Assembly: GCA_965279515.1 (NCBI GenBank)
Contig: CBDIID010000003.1
Coordinates: forward strand, 2,048,001 to 2,112,000
Source of the DNA: Turneriella sp.
Lineage (GTDB): Bacteria; Spirochaetota; Leptospiria; Turneriellales; Turneriellaceae
Direction of reading: 5' to 3'
Length of the DNA: 64,000 bases
Shown here one piece after another: positions 44,563 through 60,326 of the stretch. Under the pieces are notes generated by a model. It ran no database searches. It saw only the letters and a list, made by a program, of their open reading frames with translations, and was not told the DNA's origin. A program made the translations under genes and the position numbers. Numbering within the stretch: the stretch's first letter is position 1; every line of letters starts with the position of its first letter.

Positions 44563-47500
44563 TTATCCTCCGGCGTTGGCGGCAGGCGCACTGTAAACGC
44601 TGGCCTCGTCAGAGATGCGCTGAAAAAATTCCGGAATATTGATACGCCGGTTTTTGATTTCGTCGGGCGAAGCGGCAAGGTAACCGAAGAATTTCTTACT
44701 CATCGGAATATCCGAATAGACGAAACCATCCCTGAAAACAATGTCCATTTTTTTAGGCACGGTCGTGTTCGCGGCCAATGTATTTACAAGGCCCGAACTC
44801 TTTGGCATGACCGCCTTCATTACTGTATCGGCAAATTCAGGCCCGATTCTGAAAATCGAAATATAACCATTGAGGTTTTCGATAGGTTTATCCAGCCTGT
44901 TCCCCGTAAAAAGCATGTCGATTCTGAGCTTGCCATCGGTAATATTTTCTGCCTTTTCCTTAAGCAACAGCGGCTTTAAATCAATATCTTTGATCTGGAT
45001 AGTCGACGAATATTCCATCTCGCTGGGTCGCAGTCTCCCCAAATTGAACAATGTGTCTGAAATGGTGACGACGCCGTTCAACGTATACATCTGCATTACG
45101 GGCATCACGAAGACATTATCTTTGTACTCCATCGATGCACCGACAGCCGGATAGTTGCCGCGGGGATAAACAAGATTGAGCCATTCTTTTTTATTGTTCG
45201 GATCGGGAATATCAATGCCCGCTATAGAAAAATTGTATTCGCGGTTAAAATTATAGTTCTTTATAATGTGCTCTTTGTTCCCTGCGCGGAGATTCAGCGT
45301 CTTTTTCAGCTTTAGGTCGTGCCTGAACGGAAATATCATGTTGACCTTGTTTATGCGTACGTCCTTATTGCGAAAACTGAGATCTTCGATCTTAATTTTT
45401 CCGTTGACGATAGTGTCCTTGGCTGTACCTGCCAGCGAAAAAACACCGACGAGAAAAGTATCATCGAGAATTTCACTTTCTTCTTTTTTAGAAAGCTCAA
45501 TCTTAAACCGCATATCGGGCACCGGAACGGTGACGCGCCGCTCGCGGCCTGTTTTCGGATCGGTCTCGATATCGACCCCCTGCCGAAGCGCACCGTCGAG
45601 AGAAACCAGCAAAGCCTGCCTGAGCCCCGTGATGGTAAACTGGTCGAGGTAAGTTACCGCGGGGGTCAGGCGCGTCTTAGCGTTAATCACGATATCATCC
45701 AAATGGATGTCAGGAAAAGCGACGTGTGTTGTATGAACAACGGCGGTTTCACCACCCGCAATCGTCACCGCCGTTTCGCCGTCGGCCCTCATGGTGCGCC
45801 CCGGGCTTACGGCGGCGATCTGTGTGCCAATCGTCTCTTGGAGCGCCACCGGCATACTCAGAACCAGAGCCTTAAAACCAATCGTCAACGCATCGAGATT
45901 GTAATTCACTTTGATGCCCTGTGTTTTCTCAATCGTCACGCGCGATTTGAGTTCGACCGCAGGGTTATAATCTTTGTCTTTATCGGTAAATGCAATCACC
46001 GGCAGATTGACCGAGATCTGCTTGAAATCCTCGCTACTCTTAACCGCGCCTTTAACATTGAAATCGATGCGATTGACGCCGGATTTACCCCGGTCAACAA
46101 AATAATATAACTGCGGCGAGAATACGCGCAGGGCAATGGCAAGATTTTGGGGAGATTCGCCGATGGCGCTGAAAGTCGTATTGATCTGGCCCTGGGCATT
46201 GCCCGACGCAAAGGGTGTTAAGTCAAAGCCGCGCAGCGAGAAATTCACTGCGGTCTTTTTCTCTTCGAGCGATGCGTCGAGACCGACACCGGCACCGTTG
46301 ATCACACCCTTGAGTTTTGCTTCTGCTTTTTTAATGGGCAGCGGCTTTCTTTTCTGATCGACAAATGCCGCATGATCAAACTCGAGGGTGGGAATCGAAA
46401 TGTTGAGGTTCCCCTTTCGTACCTGAACACGCTCAAGCATAATGCCGCCCCGATCGTCGACCGTATCGCCGCGGATGACAACGGTGGTTGGCTTCACCGA
46501 AAAATACCCCGAATAGGAAGGATCGCGCTGACCCGTCAGGCCCGACACAACCCTGAAAACTTCGCCGAGATTCACACGCGAGGCTCCCGTCTGAATATCG
46601 ATGCTACGGCCCGGCGTTAAAACCTTCTCGCCGCTACCGGTAAGCGTAAGCAACGTATCACCCAGAAATTTGATGATAAAATTCCCGATCTTCAAACGAT
46701 CTTCTTTGGCATTATACTCTATCTTGTGATCGACGAGAAAGGATAGATTCTGGGCAGCACGGCCCGCAAGCGCCACAGGGATTTTATCCTGAGCAAAATG
46801 CATATTGGAAACGAACTCAGGCCGCTTAGACTGGCCGTCGTAAAACAGCCGCCAGAACAGGTCGAGCTTTGTACTAACCCGCGCGGGCGGGCCCTGGAAT
46901 GAGATATCGATCGTCTTTTGCGGATTCAGCTCGATCACCAGCGCGTTTAACAGCGCTACCGCATCCGCAGGGTTCCGCGTATCGATTTTATTGAAATCCC
47001 GCGTCAGCAGCGAGAAGTTGAAGTTAAAATTTTTGAGATGCGCATACTGCCGCACCTTATTCGAAGCATCCTGGGCATCGAGTGTGAAGTTAAAATTCTC
47101 CAGAATAAAGCGGGCGAAAATCTGCACGTCAAAGAACCAGGAAACGACGGAGTTATTTCCCGGCGGGGACTCTGGTTCTTCTTTCTCAGGCTCTCTCTTT
47201 TTGGACGGCTTCATCAGCGCCTGCACGCTCATGATATTTTTTTTCTGGTCGATAAAGACCTCGGCGTCTTTAAATGCAATTTCATGCACGCCGAATTTAC
47301 CGCGAAAAAACCCGTAGACGTTATAAAGAAGATTAATCTCGCGCGCCTTGAGTATGGGCGTCTGTTTGAAGCCCGCGGGCGGGTGCACCACGACATTACG
47401 GAACTTAAAACCACGAAACAGCGAGGCCTCCTCTATTTTGATTTCAATTTTTCCGTTGGTATTCTCGGCAAATTGTTTTACGATCAGCGGCTCCAGAAAG

Positions 47501-47655
47501 GATGGCCGCATCACATAATTATAACCGGCAATGATTGTTATAAATACCGCGAGAAAAAAATATCCGGCTACTTTGCGCGTAATCCGGAAGATTTTTGAGA
47601 TTTTCCCCCGCGGCTGGGTCGTCGCTGTCACCTCGCCGTCGGGAAATTGCTGCAT
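44563..47655 (-). CDS. Large AsmA/TamB-like envelope protein
   Basis: N-terminal TM anchor followed by about 1000 aa of amphipathic beta-strands. Confidence 0.6.
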   Translation of the reverse strand: MQQFPDGEVTATTQPRGKISKIFRITRKVAGYFFLAVFITIIAGYNYVMRPSFLEPLIVKQFAENTNGKIEIKIEEASLFRGFKFRNVVVHPPAGFKQTPILKAREINLLYNVYGFFRGKFGVHEIAFKDAEVFIDQKKNIMSVQALMKPSKKREPEKEEPESPPGNNSVVSWFFDVQIFARFILENFNFTLDAQDASNKVRQYAHLKNFNFNFSLLTRDFNKIDTRNPADAVALLNALVIELNPQKTIDISFQGPPARVSTKLDLFWRLFYDGQSKRPEFVSNMHFAQDKIPVALAGRAAQNLSFLVDHKIEYNAKEDRLKIGNFIIKFLGDTLLTLTGSGEKVLTPGRSIDIQTGASRVNLGEVFRVVSGLTGQRDPSYSGYFSVKPTTVVIRGDTVDDRGGIMLERVQVRKGNLNISIPTLEFDHAAFVDQKRKPLPIKKAEAKLKGVINGAGVGLDASLEEKKTAVNFSLRGFDLTPFASGNAQGQINTTFSAIGESPQNLAIALRVFSPQLYYFVDRGKSGVNRIDFNVKGAVKSSEDFKQISVNLPVIAFTDKDKDYNPAVELKSRVTIEKTQGIKVNYNLDALTIGFKALVLSMPVALQETIGTQIAAVSPGRTMRADGETAVTIAGGETAVVHTTHVAFPDIHLDDIVINAKTRLTPAVTYLDQFTITGLRQALLVSLDGALRQGVDIETDPKTGRERRVTVPVPDMRFKIELSKKEESEILDDTFLVGVFSLAGTAKDTIVNGKIKIEDLSFRNKDVRINKVNMIFPFRHDLKLKKTLNLRAGNKEHIIKNYNFNREYNFSIAGIDIPDPNNKKEWLNLVYPRGNYPAVGASMEYKDNVFVMPVMQMYTLNGVVTISDTLFNLGRLRPSEMEYSSTIQIKDIDLKPLLLKEKAENITDGKLRIDMLFTGNRLDKPIENLNGYISIFRIGPEFADTVMKAVMPKSSGLVNTLAANTTVPKKMDIVFRDGFVYSDIPMSKKFFGYLAASPDEIKNRRINIPEFFQRISDEASVYSAPAANAGG

Positions 47656-52443: not shown

Positions 52444-52449
52444 AACAAC

Positions 52450-52494
52450 TTGCGGGTCGCGGGCCAAAAACCCGCGCGCCGCAAAACTATTTTT
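52450..52494 (+). terminator. Probable intrinsic terminator
   Basis: TTGCGG..CGCGGG / CCCGCG..CCGCAA stem followed by a T run, just after stop 52443. Confidence 0.5.
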
Positions 52495-52573
52495 CCCGAT
52501 TTAGTATTAATTCCGTTCTCCTTTCCCGCACATTTTAGTTTACACACTCTCTCCCGCTCATGTGCTGTTAGGC

Positions 52574-54157
52574 ATGTCAGACGCTGATCAGTACGTTCTT
52601 GCCATCGATTTGGGTACCTCTGGCCCCAAAGTCGCGATTGTCAGCGAGAGCGGCAAGGTCCTGCACTGCGAAGTCGAAGCAACTGAACTCATTCTGCTTG
52701 ATGGCGGCGGCGCCGAGCAAGACCCCGATGACTGGTGGCAAAAGATCTGCGCCGCGTCAAAAAGACTCATCGCCAAAAATCTCGTTCCACTCGATCGCAT
52801 CACTTCTGTCGCCGTTACTTCGCAGTGGTCGGGTACCGTTGCCGTCGATAAATCCGGCAAACATCTCTATAATTCGATCATTTGGATGGATTCCCGCGGC
52901 GCAAAACATGTCGCGCAGGTCATGGACGGCCTCGTCAAATTCCAGGGCTATGACGTCGTCAAGCTCGCGCAGTGGATTCTGCTCACCGCGGGCATGCCTG
53001 GCCTCTCGGGCAAAGATTCGCTCGCCCATGTGCTCTTCATCAAAAATGAAATGCCCGATCTCTACGCGAAGACCTACAAATTTCTCGAACCGAAAGATTA
53101 CCTGAACCTGCGTCTCAGCGGCAAATTTGCTGCTGCTCAGGATTCGATCGCCCTCCACTGGGTTACCGACAACCGCGATCTCAGCAAGGTCCACTACCAT
53201 CCCGGGCTGATACAGACGACCGGCCTCGATGTGAAAAAACTCCCCGATCTCTACAGTTCGACCGATGTGCTGGGAAAAATCTTACCCGATGTCGCCCGTG
53301 AGCTCGGCATCTCTGAGAGCACGATGGTGGTTATGGGTACGCCGGATGTCCAGTCTGCGGCGCTGGGTTCGGGTGCTGTTGAAGATTATGCCGCGCACCT
53401 GTACATCGGTACATCCTCATGGCTCACCTGCCACGTGCCGTTCAAGAAGACATCAGCCGAATACAACATGGCAACGATTCCCTCGGCCGTACCGGGCAGA
53501 TACCTCGTCGGCAATGAACACGAAACCGCGGGGTATTGCCTCACCTACCTGCGCGATAAAATCTTTTATCCCAAAGATGCCATCACACCCGAAGGCGCCC
53601 CGAAAGATGCTTACCAGAAATTCAACGATCTCGCCGCAACGATCGCTCCGGGCAGCGACAAACTGATTTTTACGCCGTGGCTCATCGGCGAACGCACACC
53701 GGTAGAAGACCACACGATACGCGGCGGCTTCTTCAATATGTCGCTCTCAACGACGCGCGCACACATGGTGCGTGCGGTCTTTGAAGGCGTGGCCTACAAC
53801 TCGCGCTGGTTACTTGACGCCGTCGAAGATTTTATCGGCCGCAAGATCGAATATATCAACATGATCGGCGGCGGCGCGCGCTCAGACCTCTGGTGCCAGA
53901 TCCACGCCGACATTCTCAACCGCGAAATACGCCAGGTTGCCGACGCCGTCGAAGCAAATGTGCGCGGTGTCGCATTACTTGCAGGGGTCTCGCAAGGGCG
54001 CTTTAAATTCAAAGACCTTTCGAGCCGCGTGGCAATCGCAAAAACGTATAAACCGATCGCCGCAAACCGCAAGATTTACGACGAGCTTTATACCGAATTT
54101 AAGAATGTCTACACCGCTCACAAGAAAATACATGAGAGAATGAATAAAACACATTAG
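52574..54157 (+). CDS. FGGY family carbohydrate kinase (xylulokinase-like)
   Basis: IDLGTSG, IIWMDSRG, IGTSSW, GERTP, AVFEGVA, GGGARS. Confidence 0.92.
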   Translation: MSDADQYVLAIDLGTSGPKVAIVSESGKVLHCEVEATELILLDGGGAEQDPDDWWQKICAASKRLIAKNLVPLDRITSVAVTSQWSGTVAVDKSGKHLYNSIIWMDSRGAKHVAQVMDGLVKFQGYDVVKLAQWILLTAGMPGLSGKDSLAHVLFIKNEMPDLYAKTYKFLEPKDYLNLRLSGKFAAAQDSIALHWVTDNRDLSKVHYHPGLIQTTGLDVKKLPDLYSSTDVLGKILPDVARELGISESTMVVMGTPDVQSAALGSGAVEDYAAHLYIGTSSWLTCHVPFKKTSAEYNMATIPSAVPGRYLVGNEHETAGYCLTYLRDKIFYPKDAITPEGAPKDAYQKFNDLAATIAPGSDKLIFTPWLIGERTPVEDHTIRGGFFNMSLSTTRAHMVRAVFEGVAYNSRWLLDAVEDFIGRKIEYINMIGGGARSDLWCQIHADILNREIRQVADAVEANVRGVALLAGVSQGRFKFKDLSSRVAIAKTYKPIAANRKIYDELYTEFKNVYTAHKKIHERMNKTH

Positions 54158-54164
54158 GAACACC

Positions 54165-55706
54165 ATGGATCCACAACTCATTGCCGAATACCAAAAGAAA
54201 TTCCCCGAGGTTTTTGCCTTCGTAGAAGGTATCCTCGAACGCTTTCCCGAGCTCGACCGCTTCATTAAATCACAAGGCATTGTGCGCGACCAGATCGATG
54301 CCCAGGCCAAAGAAGTGCTCGAGACGATCGCAAAAGACATGAAACCTTACCGCGACCAGTACGAGGTCCATGCCCGCTTGCCTAAAGAAGGTGTCGCGCG
54401 GCCTGAAGTCCTGAAAGAGCTCAAAGAGATGCGCGATCTAGAGCGTAAAAAATGGAAAGAAGGCTACGTATCGGGCGCTGTCTACCACGGCGACGATGAG
54501 CATATCGAGTATATGAATAACGCCTACACGATACATTCGCAGTCGAATCCCCTGCACTCCGATCTCTGGCCCAGCGCCAGCAAGTTCGAAGCGGAGATCA
54601 TTTCGATGACCGCCGGCATGCTCAGTGAAGGTGCTCCCGAAAGCGTGCGCGCAGGTATCTGCGGTTCGGTATCTTCTGGCGGTACCGAGAGCATCCTTTT
54701 GGCGATGAAAACCTACCGCGATATGGCTTTTGAGGAGCGCGGTGTGCGCAATCCGGAAATGGTGTTGCCGACAACTGCACACGTGGCATTCCACAAAGCG
54801 GCACAATATTTTAAGATCAAGATTCGCTACGTAAACTTTGACAGCAATTTCCGGGCGAACCTCGACGAAGTCAGAAAAGCGATCAATAGTAATACTGTCG
54901 TCGTCGTTGGCTCAGCACCCGCTTTCCCCCATGGCATTGTCGACCCCATCGAAGAGATGTCCAATCTCGCGCTCTCGAAAAAAATTCCGTTCCACACCGA
55001 CGCCTGCCTCGGCGGCTATATTCTGCCTTGGGCAAAAAAACTCGGCTATGATGTGCCTAAATTCGATTTCTCGCTGCCCGGTGTGACATCGATTTCGGTG
55101 GACACACACAAGTACGGTTACGCAGCGAAAGGCACTTCGGTGATTCTCTACCGCAACGCGAAAATCCGCCACCACCAGTTCTTTACCTCAACTAACTGGC
55201 CGGGGGGGATGTACTTCTCACCCACATTCGCCGGTTCACGCCCGGGCGGCCTTTCGGCCGCATGCTGGGCGGCGCTGGTTTCGATCGGTGAAAAGGGTTA
55301 TCTCGACGCTGCGAAAAAAATCATGACAGCCGCCGATTACGTCAAAGCCGAAATCAAAAAAATTCCCGAACTGAAACTCCTCGGCAACCCGCTCTATGTC
55401 ATCGCCTTTGCGTCAGACACCATAGACATCTACAAGGTCATGGAACAGATGACGCATAAGGGTTATTCACTCAACGGTCTGCATCGCCCTGCCTGTGTGC
55501 ATATTGCACTCACACTGCGCCATGCAGAACCCGGTGTAGCAGAACGTTTCATCGAAGACCTCAAGGCTGCCGTAGCTTATGTGAAAGCAAACCCTTCCGA
55601 AAAGGGCAGCTCGGCACCGATCTACGGCATGGCTGCATCACTGCCGGTGCGCAGCGTCGTCGGCGATTTACTGAAAACTTATATGGACGCTTATTATAAA
55701 GTGTAA
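54165..55706 (+). CDS. Sphingosine-1-phosphate lyase-like PLP enzyme
   Basis: GYVSGAVYHG, SNPLH, SGGTESI, AHVAFHKAA, HTDACLGG, DTHKYGY (PLP Lys), GSRPG, PIYG. Confidence 0.88.
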   Translation: MDPQLIAEYQKKFPEVFAFVEGILERFPELDRFIKSQGIVRDQIDAQAKEVLETIAKDMKPYRDQYEVHARLPKEGVARPEVLKELKEMRDLERKKWKEGYVSGAVYHGDDEHIEYMNNAYTIHSQSNPLHSDLWPSASKFEAEIISMTAGMLSEGAPESVRAGICGSVSSGGTESILLAMKTYRDMAFEERGVRNPEMVLPTTAHVAFHKAAQYFKIKIRYVNFDSNFRANLDEVRKAINSNTVVVVGSAPAFPHGIVDPIEEMSNLALSKKIPFHTDACLGGYILPWAKKLGYDVPKFDFSLPGVTSISVDTHKYGYAAKGTSVILYRNAKIRHHQFFTSTNWPGGMYFSPTFAGSRPGGLSAACWAALVSIGEKGYLDAAKKIMTAADYVKAEIKKIPELKLLGNPLYVIAFASDTIDIYKVMEQMTHKGYSLNGLHRPACVHIALTLRHAEPGVAERFIEDLKAAVAYVKANPSEKGSSAPIYGMAASLPVRSVVGDLLKTYMDAYYKV

Positions 55707-55794
55707 GTGTCCCCACCCCCTGCCCCTCCCCGCATGCGGGGAGGGGAGCATGGGGGCCTCCCCCGTTTACGGGGGAGGTTGGGAGGGGGACACT
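55706..55794. repeat. REP-like inverted doublet
   Basis: Hairpins CCCCTCCCCGCATGCGGGGAGGGG and CCTCCCCCGTTTACGGGGGAGG, enclosed by AGTGTCCCC/GGGGACACT. Confidence 0.7.
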
Positions 55795-56723
55795 GAAGCC
55801 GCATCAGCCCTTAAAACGCCCGTTTTGGAAAAAACGCCTCGCGACTTCTTGAATTCCACACCGTCGCCCTCGCCGAGCAGCAGCATATAGTCGCTGCGGC
55901 CTGAGATCGCAATCGAGTCTTTGATCATTTCCATTTCGCGGCCGCCGCGGCGGTAGAAGGTGCTGTGATGTATGGGTATCATGTAACGTGCGCCGCAGTC
56001 GCGGTAGATCTGCAGAGCTCCATAAGGATTCACATGCACGGCATTGCCAATACCCCCTGAAGTAAAACCTCCTGCTGGTCCTACGGGAATTAACGCAACG
56101 TCGATTTTATAATCGCGCTTGAGATTACGGAAATATTCTTCATGGTAACCGGTGTCGCCGGCAAAGAATACCGTGATGCCTTTGTATTCAATGATATAGC
56201 CGGTATAGGGTTCGCCATCCCACAGATTATCGACCAGCATGCGCCCGCCAAAATGCCGCACCGGTACAGAGGTGATTTTCAGACCATTTTCTTCGTGCGA
56301 ATAGCCCGGGCTTGCGGGATGCTCATGACGGGCCACGGAGTGCGGTGTATAATTAAAACCGCTCGGTGGCGCGAACAAGTGCCCCGAGCCGCGCAGCACA
56401 CGCAGCGAAGGCGCGTCGAGATGATCGAAATGGTTGTGCGAGATGACAATCGCATCGACGGGTTTGACCGAGGCGACATCGATGCCAGGCTCGCTGAGAC
56501 GTTTGACAACTGTGCCGGTACGGTCTGAAAAATTCGGGTCGGTGATAATCCACTTATCGTAGAGGCGCATCAGCACCGTCGCATGCCCCACCCAGTAAAA
56601 CTCAATCTTCTCAGGCGCTGAGACCAGCTGCGGTGCGGGTTTACCGGTTTTGACAGTGCCCGAAAAATTGCCGCAGGCGGCCAGAAACGTCAAAAACAGA
56701 GGAGGCCAGCAAAGGTTGCGCAT
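55767..56723 (-). CDS. MBL-fold metallo-hydrolase (NAPE-PLD/RomA-like), probable lipoprotein
   Basis: WVGHAT, TDPNFS, SHNHFDHLD, FAGDTGY, IPIHH; LAAC lipobox. Confidence 0.88.
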   Translation of the reverse strand: MRNLCWPPLFLTFLAACGNFSGTVKTGKPAPQLVSAPEKIEFYWVGHATVLMRLYDKWIITDPNFSDRTGTVVKRLSEPGIDVASVKPVDAIVISHNHFDHLDAPSLRVLRGSGHLFAPPSGFNYTPHSVARHEHPASPGYSHEENGLKITSVPVRHFGGRMLVDNLWDGEPYTGYIIEYKGITVFFAGDTGYHEEYFRNLKRDYKIDVALIPVGPAGGFTSGGIGNAVHVNPYGALQIYRDCGARYMIPIHHSTFYRRGGREMEMIKDSIAISGRSDYMLLLGEGDGVEFKKSRGVFSKTGVLRADAASVSPSQPPP

Positions 56724-56765
56724 ATTGTCTAGACGCAAATATAACAAAAATATTGTATCGGGAAC

Positions 56766-57818
56766 TTATTCGATGCCGATCCGCTGTTCACCGCCATAGC
56801 GGTAAAAGCCTTCGGTCTCTTCCTGGGCAATAGTCTCGGCTTCGGCGCCGAAATATTTCTTCCTTAATGCATCCAGCGCTGCCGCGTCACCGGCAACCTT
56901 CGACCGTTCGGTAAGGTAGGTTTTGCCCTGTGCCCAACGCGACTCGCGGTCGCGGTCGAGTGTCTCCCAGCGTTCGAGCGTCACAGCATCCATGCCCATT
57001 TCGGTGCGCACGGTCCGAAGCGCATGCCGCTGCTGTGTGGGAGAGAGGGCCTTGAGGTCGGCCTGAACCGATTGCAAGAGTGAATTCGTGATTTCCTGCT
57101 GGTGGCGTTCGAGGTAGGCCCTGGCTTCGGCGCCAAAAGTTTCGTTGAGGGTATTTTTGAAATAGCTCAGCTTGGCGTTGATATCCTTCCCCTTCGCATC
57201 GCGTATCTCTTCGAGGGCGTTCTGCATGGTCGTCGCCCTGATCTCGGCGGCGAAAATTTCTTTTGCGTTATCGTCGCCGAATAAACTGGTGCGCATTTCG
57301 GCCAAAGCCTTTTGCCGATCCTTGCGGCTCATCTTGTCGAGCCGGTCTTTGTTGCGCGTGAGCCAGTCGTTGTATTTGACCAGCGATGACAGCTGATCGA
57401 AAAGTTTATTGGCCAGATTCGGGAATGCGGCGCCCGCAAGTTCGTTCACGCAGGCGACCCAATCATTGGGTTGTTCCTTCTGGCAGAGCCGCATGAGATC
57501 TTCGAGCATCTTGATCTGCAGATAGCCGCGGTGGATATTCTTACCCCACTTCTCGCGCAACAGGGCAATTTTCTGTTCGAATGTCAGCTCACCGACGATG
57601 CGCTTCTGGCCCGTCTCCGTAAGTTCGTATTGGATTTTTTCAATCGCCGATTCCTGGTAGGCGCGTATTGCGCGTGGGTGGCTTTGCAGATTTTTTAGCT
57701 GGCGAATAGCGTCGGAATCGCGGTTAGCGAAATAGAAAATGACCGCCCCGACTAACAGGCCGCCCATAATACCAAGCCAAATGGATTTATTCTTCACGGG
57801 GGTTGTTAAGGGGGCCAC
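56766..57818 (-). CDS. Probable lipase chaperone (foldase-like)
   Basis: N-terminal TM, all-helical body, RTSLFG and LRKKYFG segments; directly downstream of the lipase. Confidence 0.6.
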   Translation of the reverse strand: MAPLTTPVKNKSIWLGIMGGLLVGAVIFYFANRDSDAIRQLKNLQSHPRAIRAYQESAIEKIQYELTETGQKRIVGELTFEQKIALLREKWGKNIHRGYLQIKMLEDLMRLCQKEQPNDWVACVNELAGAAFPNLANKLFDQLSSLVKYNDWLTRNKDRLDKMSRKDRQKALAEMRTSLFGDDNAKEIFAAEIRATTMQNALEEIRDAKGKDINAKLSYFKNTLNETFGAEARAYLERHQQEITNSLLQSVQADLKALSPTQQRHALRTVRTEMGMDAVTLERWETLDRDRESRWAQGKTYLTERSKVAGDAAALDALRKKYFGAEAETIAQEETEGFYRYGGEQRIGIE

Positions 57819-57835
57819 AGGCCCCCTTAATCTAA

Positions 57836-58933
57836 TTAGTCTTTCGCCGCGACAAAGTCAATGATCGCCGCGTAGAATTCCATCTCGTCGAATGTGTCAG
57901 GCGGAACGCCCACCACATCGAGATGATCCTGGTTGATGATACTCGAGCTCGATGTCATCTGGATCGACGTCGGGTTATTGAGATCAGACACATAACCTGT
58001 TGTAGAATCCTGGGTGATGTAATCGAGGCAGAGTGTGCATGAATTGTGTTTCAGGCGATAACCCATCTGCTGCGAGTTGATACCGACCAGACCGTCGTCG
58101 TCGAGATCTGTCGCCGTACCGTTACCCTTGCCGGCAGCACCATCGTTGTCGCAGTCATCCACACAATAGCCGTTGCCATCGATGTTGATGAAACCATTAC
58201 GCAGCAAGAACAGCGCCGGGTTCACCGAAACACCTGTCTGTGCTGTGACGAACGAACCGTAGTACGCCGCGTACGTTGCACTGACGGGGTTCGCCACGTT
58301 GAAAGCTTTCGCCCCCGTGGTCACTCCGTCTGTTGCACTGTAGTCGTTATACACGAGCTGCTTCGCACCTGCAAAGGCATCGCTGCCGCTGCGGTAGATG
58401 GTGTTTCCGTAAATCGTTGCCAAAGCCGCCACGACATTCGTGACGCCGGGCTTCAGGTCGAGAATATACTTCGCGACGGGTGATCCGCGGTGGGGAGAAG
58501 AAACAGAAATCAACACTTTGACTACCTGGCGGCCTTTACGTTGGTAAAGAACCTTTGCCGCCTTGCGGATATCCAAACCGCCCTGCGAATGCCCCACGAG
58601 GTTGATGTAACTCACACCCTGCGAAGTCATATACGATTCAATCTGGTTCGCGATGTCGAGACCGCGTACTTCGGAGGACTGAAAAGCGTATGTCGCTGTC
58701 TGGTAAGCCTTTTGCGAGCTGCTTATATTACCGTTGCAGGTAATTTCGAGAAACTCATCACAAGGATCGCCGACAAAAACACCGTAGTCATCCCCCCAAT
58801 AGGAATAGCCCAGAATGTCGTCAAAACCCGCCATGCCATGGGCGAAGACCACCGGGTATGTGGTTTTCGCGGCCGCTGCTGAAACTGCCGCAGGAACTGC
58901 GGCAAAAAGGAATGCGATCAACATTTTTCGCAT
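57836..58933 (-). CDS. Secreted triacylglycerol lipase-like alpha/beta hydrolase
   Basis: YPVVFAHG, GHSQG nucleophile, SPHRGS, DDGLV, QDHLD; signal peptide. Confidence 0.92.
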   Translation of the reverse strand: MRKMLIAFLFAAVPAAVSAAAAKTTYPVVFAHGMAGFDDILGYSYWGDDYGVFVGDPCDEFLEITCNGNISSSQKAYQTATYAFQSSEVRGLDIANQIESYMTSQGVSYINLVGHSQGGLDIRKAAKVLYQRKGRQVVKVLISVSSPHRGSPVAKYILDLKPGVTNVVAALATIYGNTIYRSGSDAFAGAKQLVYNDYSATDGVTTGAKAFNVANPVSATYAAYYGSFVTAQTGVSVNPALFLLRNGFINIDGNGYCVDDCDNDGAAGKGNGTATDLDDDGLVGINSQQMGYRLKHNSCTLCLDYITQDSTTGYVSDLNNPTSIQMTSSSSIINQDHLDVVGVPPDTFDEMEFYAAIIDFVAAKD

Positions 58934-59135: not shown

Positions 59136-60326
59136 ATGGTTCGCTTACCGATCGTGAAACTGTACTTATCTGGCCTACTGCTCATCGCTGTGACGGCACT
59201 GGGTGCACAAGCAGCAAAGCCGGATGTAAAACCGGAAACAAAGCCTGCAGCTCCTGCAGTTAAAGAAGTCAAAGCCGAAACAAAACCAGAAGTTAAACCC
59301 GCGGCGAAACCGGAAAATAAACCGGAAACGAAACCGCCTGAAAAAACGGAAGCCAAAACCTTCAAGAGCGACGTGCCCATTGTGATCGAAGCCGATAAGT
59401 CGACCGCAACCGTTGGGCCCGCGATCAAGAAACTGATCTTCATCGATTTTTATAATGAGTCGAACAACCCCAACGCCAAATGGATGGTCGACTCGATCGG
59501 CGAATCGATTTTTGAACTCACGAAAAATAAATATAATTATTCGCGCATTCCCAACAAGGTCTGGCGCGAATACGCGACGCAGAAAAATTTCAAACCCGAA
59601 GACTTTTATAATACCGAAAAACTCCAGGCGATGGGCTATGCGCTGAAGGTGGATGGCATCATTTTCGGAAAGTTTATCACGACCGAAGAAAACATCCAGA
59701 TCAGCGGCAAGATTCTCTCCGTCGTCGACAAAGAAATCATCGCGGAAAAAAACGTCACTGTGCCGTTCTCGAGCCAGATGTTCGAAGATGTGCAGGATGT
59801 CTCGGAGACCCTGGGCAGCCGCATCAAAGACCTGTTCTTCCCGTCAGACCGCGGCGCATTGTGGCGGTCAGCCCTTCTGCCGGGCTGGGGACAATACTAT
59901 AAACAACGCAAAACCTGGGGGTATATCTACGGCGGCGTCATTGGCACGGGTGCAGCGTTCTCACTGTTCTCGCTCATCATGTTACAATCGTCGAAGCGCG
60001 CTTATGAAAATTACAATCCTGACCATGTCGTCACGCCCAACAATGAATTCGGCATCAAAGACCCGGCGGCGGCGCAGGCACAGTTCGCCAAGCTCGAAGA
60101 TACCGCCAACCAATGGTACCAGATTACCATGATCAGCGCCAGCATCACGCTGGGCATCTATCTCTGGCATCTTTTCGATGCCTGGTTCTTCGAAGGCAGT
60201 TATACCGAGATCGCGAAGGGCGGCACTGCACTGAATGGCCGCGGTGGGGATAACCTCCTGGGGGCGAATATCCGCATTAGCAGCGACCGGGATCCCCTGT
60301 CGATCCGCATCGGCTTCGCATTTTGA
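59136..60326 (+). CDS. Exported protein: KPE-rich linker, FlgO/TolB_N-like domain, DUF5683-like membrane segment
   Basis: KPE(T/V/N) repeats; LIFIDFYNESNNPNAKW; WRSALLPGWGQYY; ends IGFAF. Confidence 0.65.
   Translation: MVRLPIVKLYLSGLLLIAVTALGAQAAKPDVKPETKPAAPAVKEVKAETKPEVKPAAKPENKPETKPPEKTEAKTFKSDVPIVIEADKSTATVGPAIKKLIFIDFYNESNNPNAKWMVDSIGESIFELTKNKYNYSRIPNKVWREYATQKNFKPEDFYNTEKLQAMGYALKVDGIIFGKFITTEENIQISGKILSVVDKEIIAEKNVTVPFSSQMFEDVQDVSETLGSRIKDLFFPSDRGALWRSALLPGWGQYYKQRKTWGYIYGGVIGTGAAFSLFSLIMLQSSKRAYENYNPDHVVTPNNEFGIKDPAAAQAQFAKLEDTANQWYQITMISASITLGIYLWHLFDAWFFEGSYTEIAKGGTALNGRGGDNLLGANIRISSDRDPLSIRIGFAF

Follow-up and report, generated by a model that had tools for sequence, protein, structure and literature searches.

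Degradation of long-chain bases in eukaryotes takes two enzymes. A sphingosine kinase (Lcb4/Lcb5 in yeast, SPHK1/2 in humans) phosphorylates C1 of the base, and a pyridoxal 5'-phosphate (PLP)-dependent sphingosine-1-phosphate (S1P) lyase (Dpl1 or SGPL1) then cleaves the C2-C3 bond. All known sphingosine kinases share the diacylglycerol (DAG)-kinase fold (PMC6148460). Among bacterial S1P lyases (SPLs), the enzyme from Symbiobacterium thermophilum (StSPL; PDB 3MAD, 3MAF and 3MAU) is soluble and lacks a transmembrane helix. The report on it (PMC3148216) describes breakdown of S1P both in vitro and in blood, and gives the natural function of the enzyme as unknown. Here, we describe a locus of Turneriella sp. 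(Spirochaetota) in which a gene for an StSPL-type lyase directly follows a gene for an FGGY-family kinase. The locus lies in a 64,000-nucleotide stretch of contig CBDIID010000003.1 (assembly GCA_965279515.1, positions 2,048,001 to 2,112,000), which was analyzed as a whole and which we call the window. The window lyase is homologous to the eukaryotic lyases and, like StSPL, is soluble and has no transmembrane helix; eukaryotic lyases carry a membrane anchor, whereas both window proteins lack one and their genes form an operon. The kinase differs in fold, being of the FGGY type here and of the DAG-kinase type in eukaryotes. We put at about even the chance that this two-gene operon serves to phosphorylate and then cleave 2-amino-1,3-diols, with long-chain sphingoid bases as the most probable substrates. 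Chemistry of this kind is already known from eukaryotic long-chain-base degradation; the kinase family is the new part, and it would at most work like a sphingosine kinase. We found no paper on the pairing of FGGY kinases with S1P lyases, or on a link between RuBisCO-like proteins and FGGY kinases (see below), in the full-text literature, whose coverage mostly excludes subscription journals.

Judged by its sequence, the window lyase is a full member of the S1P lyase family (EC 4.1.2.27), of the soluble bacterial type. A phmmer search against the PDB aligned its residues 50-513 with StSPL (3mad) at an E-value of 3.1e-182 and ~65% identity, as read off the printed alignment. Human SGPL1 (2.4e-129), a Burkholderia S1P lyase (1e-120) and yeast Dpl1 (4.3e-120) were also matched, and the nearest non-lyase, MfnA, reached only 8.8e-25. 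Scores under the curated equivalog models of group II PLP decarboxylases stayed below the cut-offs (228.4 vs. 299.4 for MfnA and 111.9 vs. 380.4 for GAD). Furthermore, all 14 StS1PL residues listed in Table 3 of PMC6148460 are identical in the window lyase when mapped by hand through the StSPL alignment. The PLP lysine is K316, the PLP cup consists of G173, T174, H315 and S358, PLP stacking and the PLP aspartate are represented by H206, C281 and D279, and the substrate phosphate pocket by A105, Y107, N128, H131 and K322. SPLs have a narrow hydrophobic tunnel leading into the active site, as described in PMC6148460 and PMC10243590, and the "substrate entry" tyrosine of this tunnel is present as Y487. 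The initial annotation had called this PLP enzyme an S1P lyase and not a plain decarboxylase, and the identity to StSPL, the 14 conserved residues and the subthreshold MfnA and GAD scores all agree with that call. The genome holds no second copy of this lyase. Many Spirochaetota and Chloroflexota carry a more distant SPL-like family, 35-43% identical to the window lyase (L098-L110 and L143-L159), whose role may differ.

The kinase has both FGGY domains (FGGY_N, PF00370, 1.1e-40, residues 7-265; FGGY_C, PF02782, 7.1e-29, residues 278-473), and a domain scan found no match to DAGK_cat (PF00781) on it. It fell below the cut-off in all 12 NCBIfam equivalog models that it touched, including the XylB models TIGR01312 (285.5 vs. 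380.25) and NF011601 (174.3 vs. 912), GntK (229 vs. 649) and GlpK (135 vs. 590). Its closest solved relative is E. coli XylB (2itm, E-value 5.5e-42). An alignment was made of 81 kinases of the clade and the GlpK and XylB sequences in the E. coli K-12 record. Fold, nucleotide-binding motifs and catalytic aspartate are common to the window kinase, XylB and GlpK: the window kinase keeps DxGTS (D12-G14-T15) and GGGA (G432-G433-G434-A435), and its D258 aligns with XylB D233 and with GlpK D245 (literature numbering). The acceptor-site columns differ, with W85/S86/W283 in the window kinase, M77/H78/V258 in XylB and R83/E84/F270 in GlpK, the last three being the glycerol-binding residues. The window kinase has the FGGY catalytic apparatus and lacks the acceptor-site residues seen in GlpK and XylB. 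Together with W104, W85 and W283 would make up an aromatic-rich acceptor site that could accommodate an ammonium group or an alkyl chain. The signature QWSGTV, W104, D258 and GTSSW283 is invariant in 70/70 relatives with an assigned gene context (49 linked to a lyase and 21 to a RuBisCO-like protein). The kinase may work like a sphingosine kinase, and it would do so without belonging to the DAG-kinase-fold family.

In contrast to XylB and GlpK, the window kinase has no isomerase or facilitator partner. A tblastn search found no second FGGY kinase in the genome, which is 99.99% complete. Xylose isomerase (TIGR02630) was without a match there and was found in 5/14 control genomes, a comparison that does not cover polyol dehydrogenase routes to xylulose. 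In public records, relatives at 57-95% identity form a very large clade, named only "xylulokinase" or "FGGY-family carbohydrate kinase". In the closest Turneriella metagenome-assembled genome (MAG), the kinase gene (L003:5998-7572) has an in-frame stop and reads as two open reading frames (ORFs), whereas the lyase gene is intact. The stop may reflect a pseudogene or an error of assembly.

The adjacency of the two genes is conserved. The initial annotation had proposed in advance to test whether this FGGY clade co-occurs with S1P lyases, and we found that it does so strongly in both directions. Scanning one genome per species yielded 595 relatives of the kinase, and the best 80 loci were kept. 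Adjacency was counted by tblastn because a greedy ORF picker gave wrong calls in high-GC loci. In 48 of these 80 loci, the kinase has a same-strand SPL gene as its neighbour, which lies downstream in 45 and directly upstream in three. The gap to the downstream SPL is below 300 nt in 43 loci (the others being L013, 578 nt, and L075, 1249 nt). The lyase-linked loci carry seven phylum labels (Chloroflexota, 16; Myxococcota, 14; Spirochaetota, 5; Actinomycetota, 4; Thermodesulfobacteriota, 3; Bacillota, 1; Pseudomonadota, 1), with 4 unlabelled. Of the 32 kinase loci without an SPL, 7 were too short to tell, 21 had the RuBisCO-like-protein-type context described below and 4 had neither.

Starting from the lyase gave the same picture. 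Among 301 Spirochaetota genomes, 27 have an SPL-like gene at an E-value of 1e-60 or better. The kinase adjoins 13/13 SPLs of 57-60% identity to the window lyase, and a second, 47%-identical SPL stands beside its own 43%-identical kinase in 3/3 fetched loci. No kinase lies within 1.5 kb of the 35-43%-identical SPL-like gene in any of 13 Spirochaetota loci. Among 301 Chloroflexota genomes, the kinase is beside 8/10 close SPLs (one miss falls at a contig end) and 2/2 SPLs of 43-46% identity, and within 1.5 kb of none of the more distant SPL-like genes (0/17 loci). At the level of whole genomes, an adjacent SPL was found in 14/15 Spirochaetota genomes that hold the kinase (at least 47% identical if adjacent, or at least 51% anywhere), and all 14 Spirochaetota genomes with a close SPL hold the kinase. 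In the 15th genome, which is 89% complete, we found a 51%-identical kinase and no SPL. The second Spirochaetota pair has diverged in parallel, which is a sign of co-evolution between kinase and lyase. We consider functional coupling of the two enzymes quite probable.

Several genomes of one Spirochaetota genus carry this second, diverged pair (43% and 47% identity; L111-L113 and genomes G088, G223, G273, G288 and G296). In some genomes of that genus, a further FGGY kinase lies about 1.2-1.8 kb past the first lyase, with up to four kinases of the clade per genome. ORF clustering over the 80 loci, using the ORF picker that mis-called high-GC loci, revealed no third gene common to the lyase-linked loci. 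We also searched proteins of 924-2635 aa for kinase-lyase fusions, and two reached an E-value of 1e-50. One of them (P0123) lacks the SPL part. The other (P0124, 990 aa) has SPL and FGGY parts, and its SPL homology is lost after about residue 365, where an Arg-rich stretch follows; we did not count it as a fusion because this stretch looks like a frameshifted reading.

The 21 SPL-free loci with an alternative context belong to 16 Asgard archaea (14 labelled as Asgard phyla and 2 titled "uncultured archaeon") and 5 Deltaproteobacteria-type MAGs. Their kinases are of the same clade as the window kinase (51-55% identity) and have identical signature motifs; instead of a lyase, these loci have an amine-handling enzyme and an MtnW-like RuBisCO-like protein. 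A saccharopine-dehydrogenase-like gene is present in 16 SPL-free kinase loci, mostly directly upstream of the kinase, and a RuBisCO-like protein in 15 (nearest model MtnW enolase, 324-338 bits vs. a cut-off of 409). Four of the five Deltaproteobacterial loci have the order major facilitator superfamily (MFS) transporter, kinase, class-III PLP enzyme and RuBisCO-like protein, with a TetR gene between transporter and kinase in 3/4. This class-III PLP enzyme is nearest to glutamate-1-semialdehyde (GSA) aminomutase, below the cut-off. The fifth has the order kinase, RuBisCO-like protein and saccharopine-dehydrogenase-like gene. A class-II-aldolase-family gene lies nearby in two Deltaproteobacterial loci. 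Of five tested genomes with this module, one has a close SPL elsewhere. The Asgard loci also have an Old Yellow Enzyme, a PNPOx-like protein and a weakly terpene-cyclase-like protein as conserved neighbours.

In a tree of 81 kinases, those linked to RuBisCO-like proteins form two clades among the lyase-linked ones. We rooted the tree on the 43%-identical kinases beside the SPL paralogues (a quick search under LG+G4, in which two long outgroup rows fell apart from the root). The kinases linked to RuBisCO-like proteins were then nested and derived within a 31-row clade (SH-aLRT 95), together with 8 lyase-linked or cut Desulfobacterota-type rows. SPL-free kinases of the clade adjoin an aminomutase-like gene in 4 loci and a saccharopine-dehydrogenase-like gene in 16, and these amine-handling partners suggest, independently of the lyase, that the kinase substrate bears an amine.

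RuBisCO-like proteins and class-II-aldolase-family enzymes of methionine salvage act on a ketose-1-phosphate head group. It is tempting, though on balance somewhat doubtful, to see in these loci one ancient FGGY clade that is a dedicated amino-diol kinase with two alternative downstream routes. Its product would carry the 1-phospho-2-amino-3-hydroxy head group P-O-CH2-CH(NH2)-CH(OH)-R. In bacteria of at least seven phyla, an S1P lyase would cleave this head group by a retro-aldol reaction. In Asgard archaea and some Deltaproteobacteria, the aminomutase-like or saccharopine-dehydrogenase-like enzyme would remove or shift the amine to give P-O-CH2-CO-CH(OH)-R, exactly the head group that RuBisCO-like proteins enolise.

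For the window operon itself, we infer that the kinase supplies the lyase with its substrate, a long-chain base and not a small amino-polyol. The FGGY kinase would move a phosphate from ATP to the C1 primary hydroxyl of sphinganine, sphingosine or phytosphingosine. The amine at C2 would then form an external aldimine with the PLP of the lyase, and retro-aldol cleavage between C2 and C3 would release phosphoethanolamine and a fatty aldehyde, which would enter nitrogen, phospholipid and fatty-acid metabolism. Free base could come from ceramide through neutral ceramidase or be taken up from detritus. The genome has two full-length neutral ceramidase genes outside the window (C3:4008785-4010245 on the plus strand and 3529247-3530737 on the minus strand; PF04734, 515 and 512 bits). 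Both matches cover the full PF04734 model and fall below the narrow NCBIfam equivalog cut-off, and the family was found in 0/14 control genomes. Within Spirochaetota, ceramidase occurs in 8/14 pair-bearing genomes vs. 44/287 others, counts in which related genomes are not independent.

A number of observations weigh against a long-chain substrate. Ceramidase is present without any SPL in 34/45 genomes of a neighbouring Leptospira-like family (f2) and occurs in only 1/4 pair-bearing genomes tested from other phyla, which rules it out as an obligate partner of the pair. A Pfam scan of 181/200 predicted flanking ORFs from 44/48 lyase-linked loci found no ceramidase and no shared lipid theme; it contained one aldehyde dehydrogenase and several sugar-phosphate genes (class-II fructose-bisphosphate aldolase, DeoC, Dak1/Dak2 and phosphoglucomutase). 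The 19 remaining ORFs come from L066 (of Myxococcus xanthus), L067, L069 and L071, near-duplicates of other Myxococcota loci. The best alpha-oxoamine synthase of the genome, which may or may not be a serine palmitoyltransferase, scores 381 bits, below the cut-offs for both serine palmitoyltransferase (640) and KBL (460), with equal scores for the two. Known FGGY substrates are all small polar sugars or polyols, and the RuBisCO-like proteins characterized so far act on small phosphates. Two unusual alpha-oxoamine synthases are encoded at C3:4123416-4127477 (L084) and 3358893-3362966 (L083); one has 815 aa, with the synthase domain in its first 400 residues and no family assigned to its C-terminal half, and the other, of 462 aa, has a 75-aa N-terminal extension and scores equally as serine palmitoyltransferase and KBL.

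The main rival to sphingoid bases as substrate is accordingly a small amino-polyol. The same kinase-then-lyase logic would then convert a small or medium-sized water-soluble 2-amino-1,3-diol (serinol, a 2-amino-2-deoxy-alditol or an amino-sugar acid) into phosphoethanolamine and a short hydroxy-aldehyde. Small polyols and ketoses are familiar substrates of FGGY kinases, and in some Chloroflexota loci sugar-phosphate genes lie directly upstream of the pair (Dak1/Dak2 in L057, class-II aldolase in L017 and L028, and DeoC in L013). The combination of RuBisCO-like protein, aminomutase-like enzyme and class-II-aldolase-family gene elsewhere in the clade also resembles small ketose-1-phosphate chemistry, and the scarcity of ceramidase in pair-bearing genomes outside Spirochaetota points the same way. 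L010 has an MFS transporter next to the pair, with 54% identity to the one beside the kinases of the RuBisCO-like-protein loci, and its likeness to anion:sugar-acid carriers favours a small soluble substrate. However, MFS carriers also move S1P, as PMC10243590 describes for a Spinster homologue. The lyase, moreover, is closely related to an enzyme that cleaves S1P and keeps the tunnel entry residue Y487. To our knowledge, there is no abundant natural small 2-amino-1,3-diol. We consider this reading possible but unlikely.

Two further explanations would separate the FGGY kinase from the lyase's substrate. The genome encodes a YegS/Rv2252/BmrU lipid kinase (174 bits vs. a cut-off of 118.65) and two weaker DAGK_cat proteins, and the first of these could phosphorylate sphingoid bases, in keeping with the fold shared by the known sphingosine kinases; the FGGY kinase would then have another task within this pathway or regulon, for example on a co-released polyol such as glycerol or on a head-group sugar of a glycosphingolipid. 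YegS-type kinases are nearly universal, though (13/14 control genomes), so their presence here says little. It is an FGGY gene and not a DAGK gene that is fixed beside the lyase across phyla, the second pair has diverged in parallel, and the acceptor-site residues are unlike those of GlpK and XylB. Such a division of labour therefore seems improbable to us. More improbable still is an ordinary kinase of pentuloses or other sugars whose position beside the lyase is metabolically meaningless. XylB is the best curated model (285 bits) and the public names of the relatives agree with it, but the window kinase falls below both XylB cut-offs, the genome lacks xylose isomerase, and adjacency recurs in loci of at least seven phyla and in both reverse comparisons. 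The partners of the clade outside the lyase context are amine-handling enzymes and not sugar isomerases.

The features of the locus are collected in Table 1. The initial annotation had described a two-gene unit with a 7-nt gap, followed by hairpins and free of an adjacent sugar isomerase or transporter, and all of this held. The two ORFs are intact and co-directional, with the kinase stop codon TAG at 54155-54157 and the lyase ATG at 54165; an alternative GTG start of the kinase is possible at 52562. A promoter-like motif claimed ahead of the kinase did not hold up: a simple sigma-70 scan found no such site in the 130-nt spacer 5' of the kinase (52444-52573), which contains a GC-rich hairpin and T-run instead. 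The scan gave four matches in 4.2 kb (51804 and 52845 on the plus strand, two on the minus strand), with 3.0 expected by chance. The hairpin with its T-run fits a separate transcription unit for the pair, and the scan flagged the same stem on the minus strand at 52485-52471. Behind the lyase, positions 55700-55805 fold with a minimum free energy of -72 kcal/mol (z -5.12; 0/200 shuffles as good). This palindrome is no canonical intrinsic terminator because it lacks a T-run. It has 23 blastn matches in the genome, counting self and partial matches, one of them 89% identical over 85 nt. Palindromes with arms of the GGGGAGGGG type are dispersed over the chromosome in the manner of repetitive extragenic palindromes (e.g., C3 1480873-1480957, 2564256-2564298 and 3433479-3433776), and contig C3 contains 128 occurrences of the word GGGGAGGGG or its complement.

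Table 1. Features of the kinase-lyase locus in the window, and loci of the kinase clade with the alternative gene context
Feature	Position or loci	Strand	Basis or remark
FGGY-family kinase, 527 aa from ATG	52574..54157	+	proposed amino-diol / sphingoid-base kinase
S1P lyase (SPL) homologue, 513 aa, soluble StSPL type	54165..55706	+	phmmer vs. PDB
7-nt intergenic gap, AGGA ribosome-binding site over kinase stop codon	54156..54164	+	sequence
GC-rich hairpin and T-run 3' of preceding 165-aa ORF	about 52450..52496	+	likely transcription-unit boundary
Nested GC-rich palindromic element between convergent SPL and MBL-hydrolase genes	55707..55794	.	dispersed repeat member
RuBisCO-like-protein-type loci	L079, L072, L068, L051, L060 and 16 Asgard loci (e.g., L043, L022)		

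Domain scans of the neighbours found no sugar isomerase or transporter adjoining the pair. Upstream lie genes for an OsmC-like protein, glyS with a HisZ-like gene and the 165-aa ORF, which matches no known family. Downstream, on the opposite strand, are genes for a metallo-beta-lactamase (MBL)-fold hydrolase, a lipase-chaperone-like protein and an alpha/beta hydrolase (Palm_thioest / PGAP1-like), a cluster that converges on the lyase gene (55767-58933). In the Turneriella locus L003, too, these three minus-strand genes come after the pair, an arrangement absent from more distant loci. The window also encodes an LIC_11026-family protein (44563-47655, minus strand; 410 bits, above the cut-off) and an LIC11435-like protein (59136-60326, plus strand). 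Both point to a genome related to Leptospira, and the best matches of the kinase point to Turneriella.

New here are three findings on the kinases of the lyase and RuBisCO-like-protein contexts: they belong to one clade, those linked to RuBisCO-like proteins are nested in the rooted tree, and the pocket signature is identical in both. Soluble bacterial S1P lyases have been orphans as to natural role, as stated for StSPL in PMC3148216, and the conserved FGGY kinase beside them suggests a testable answer. If the proposed pathway is correct, a non-homologous kinase would perform the sphingosine-kinase step, giving the first sphingoid-base kinase outside the DAG-kinase family and a natural role for these lyases. 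The widespread "xylulokinase" annotation of this kinase clade would be corrected, and a substrate class would be at hand for an uncharacterized family of RuBisCO-like proteins, including the Asgard module. For free-living bacteria, the operon would constitute an oxygen-independent two-enzyme route for drawing carbon, nitrogen and phosphoethanolamine from sphingolipid debris.

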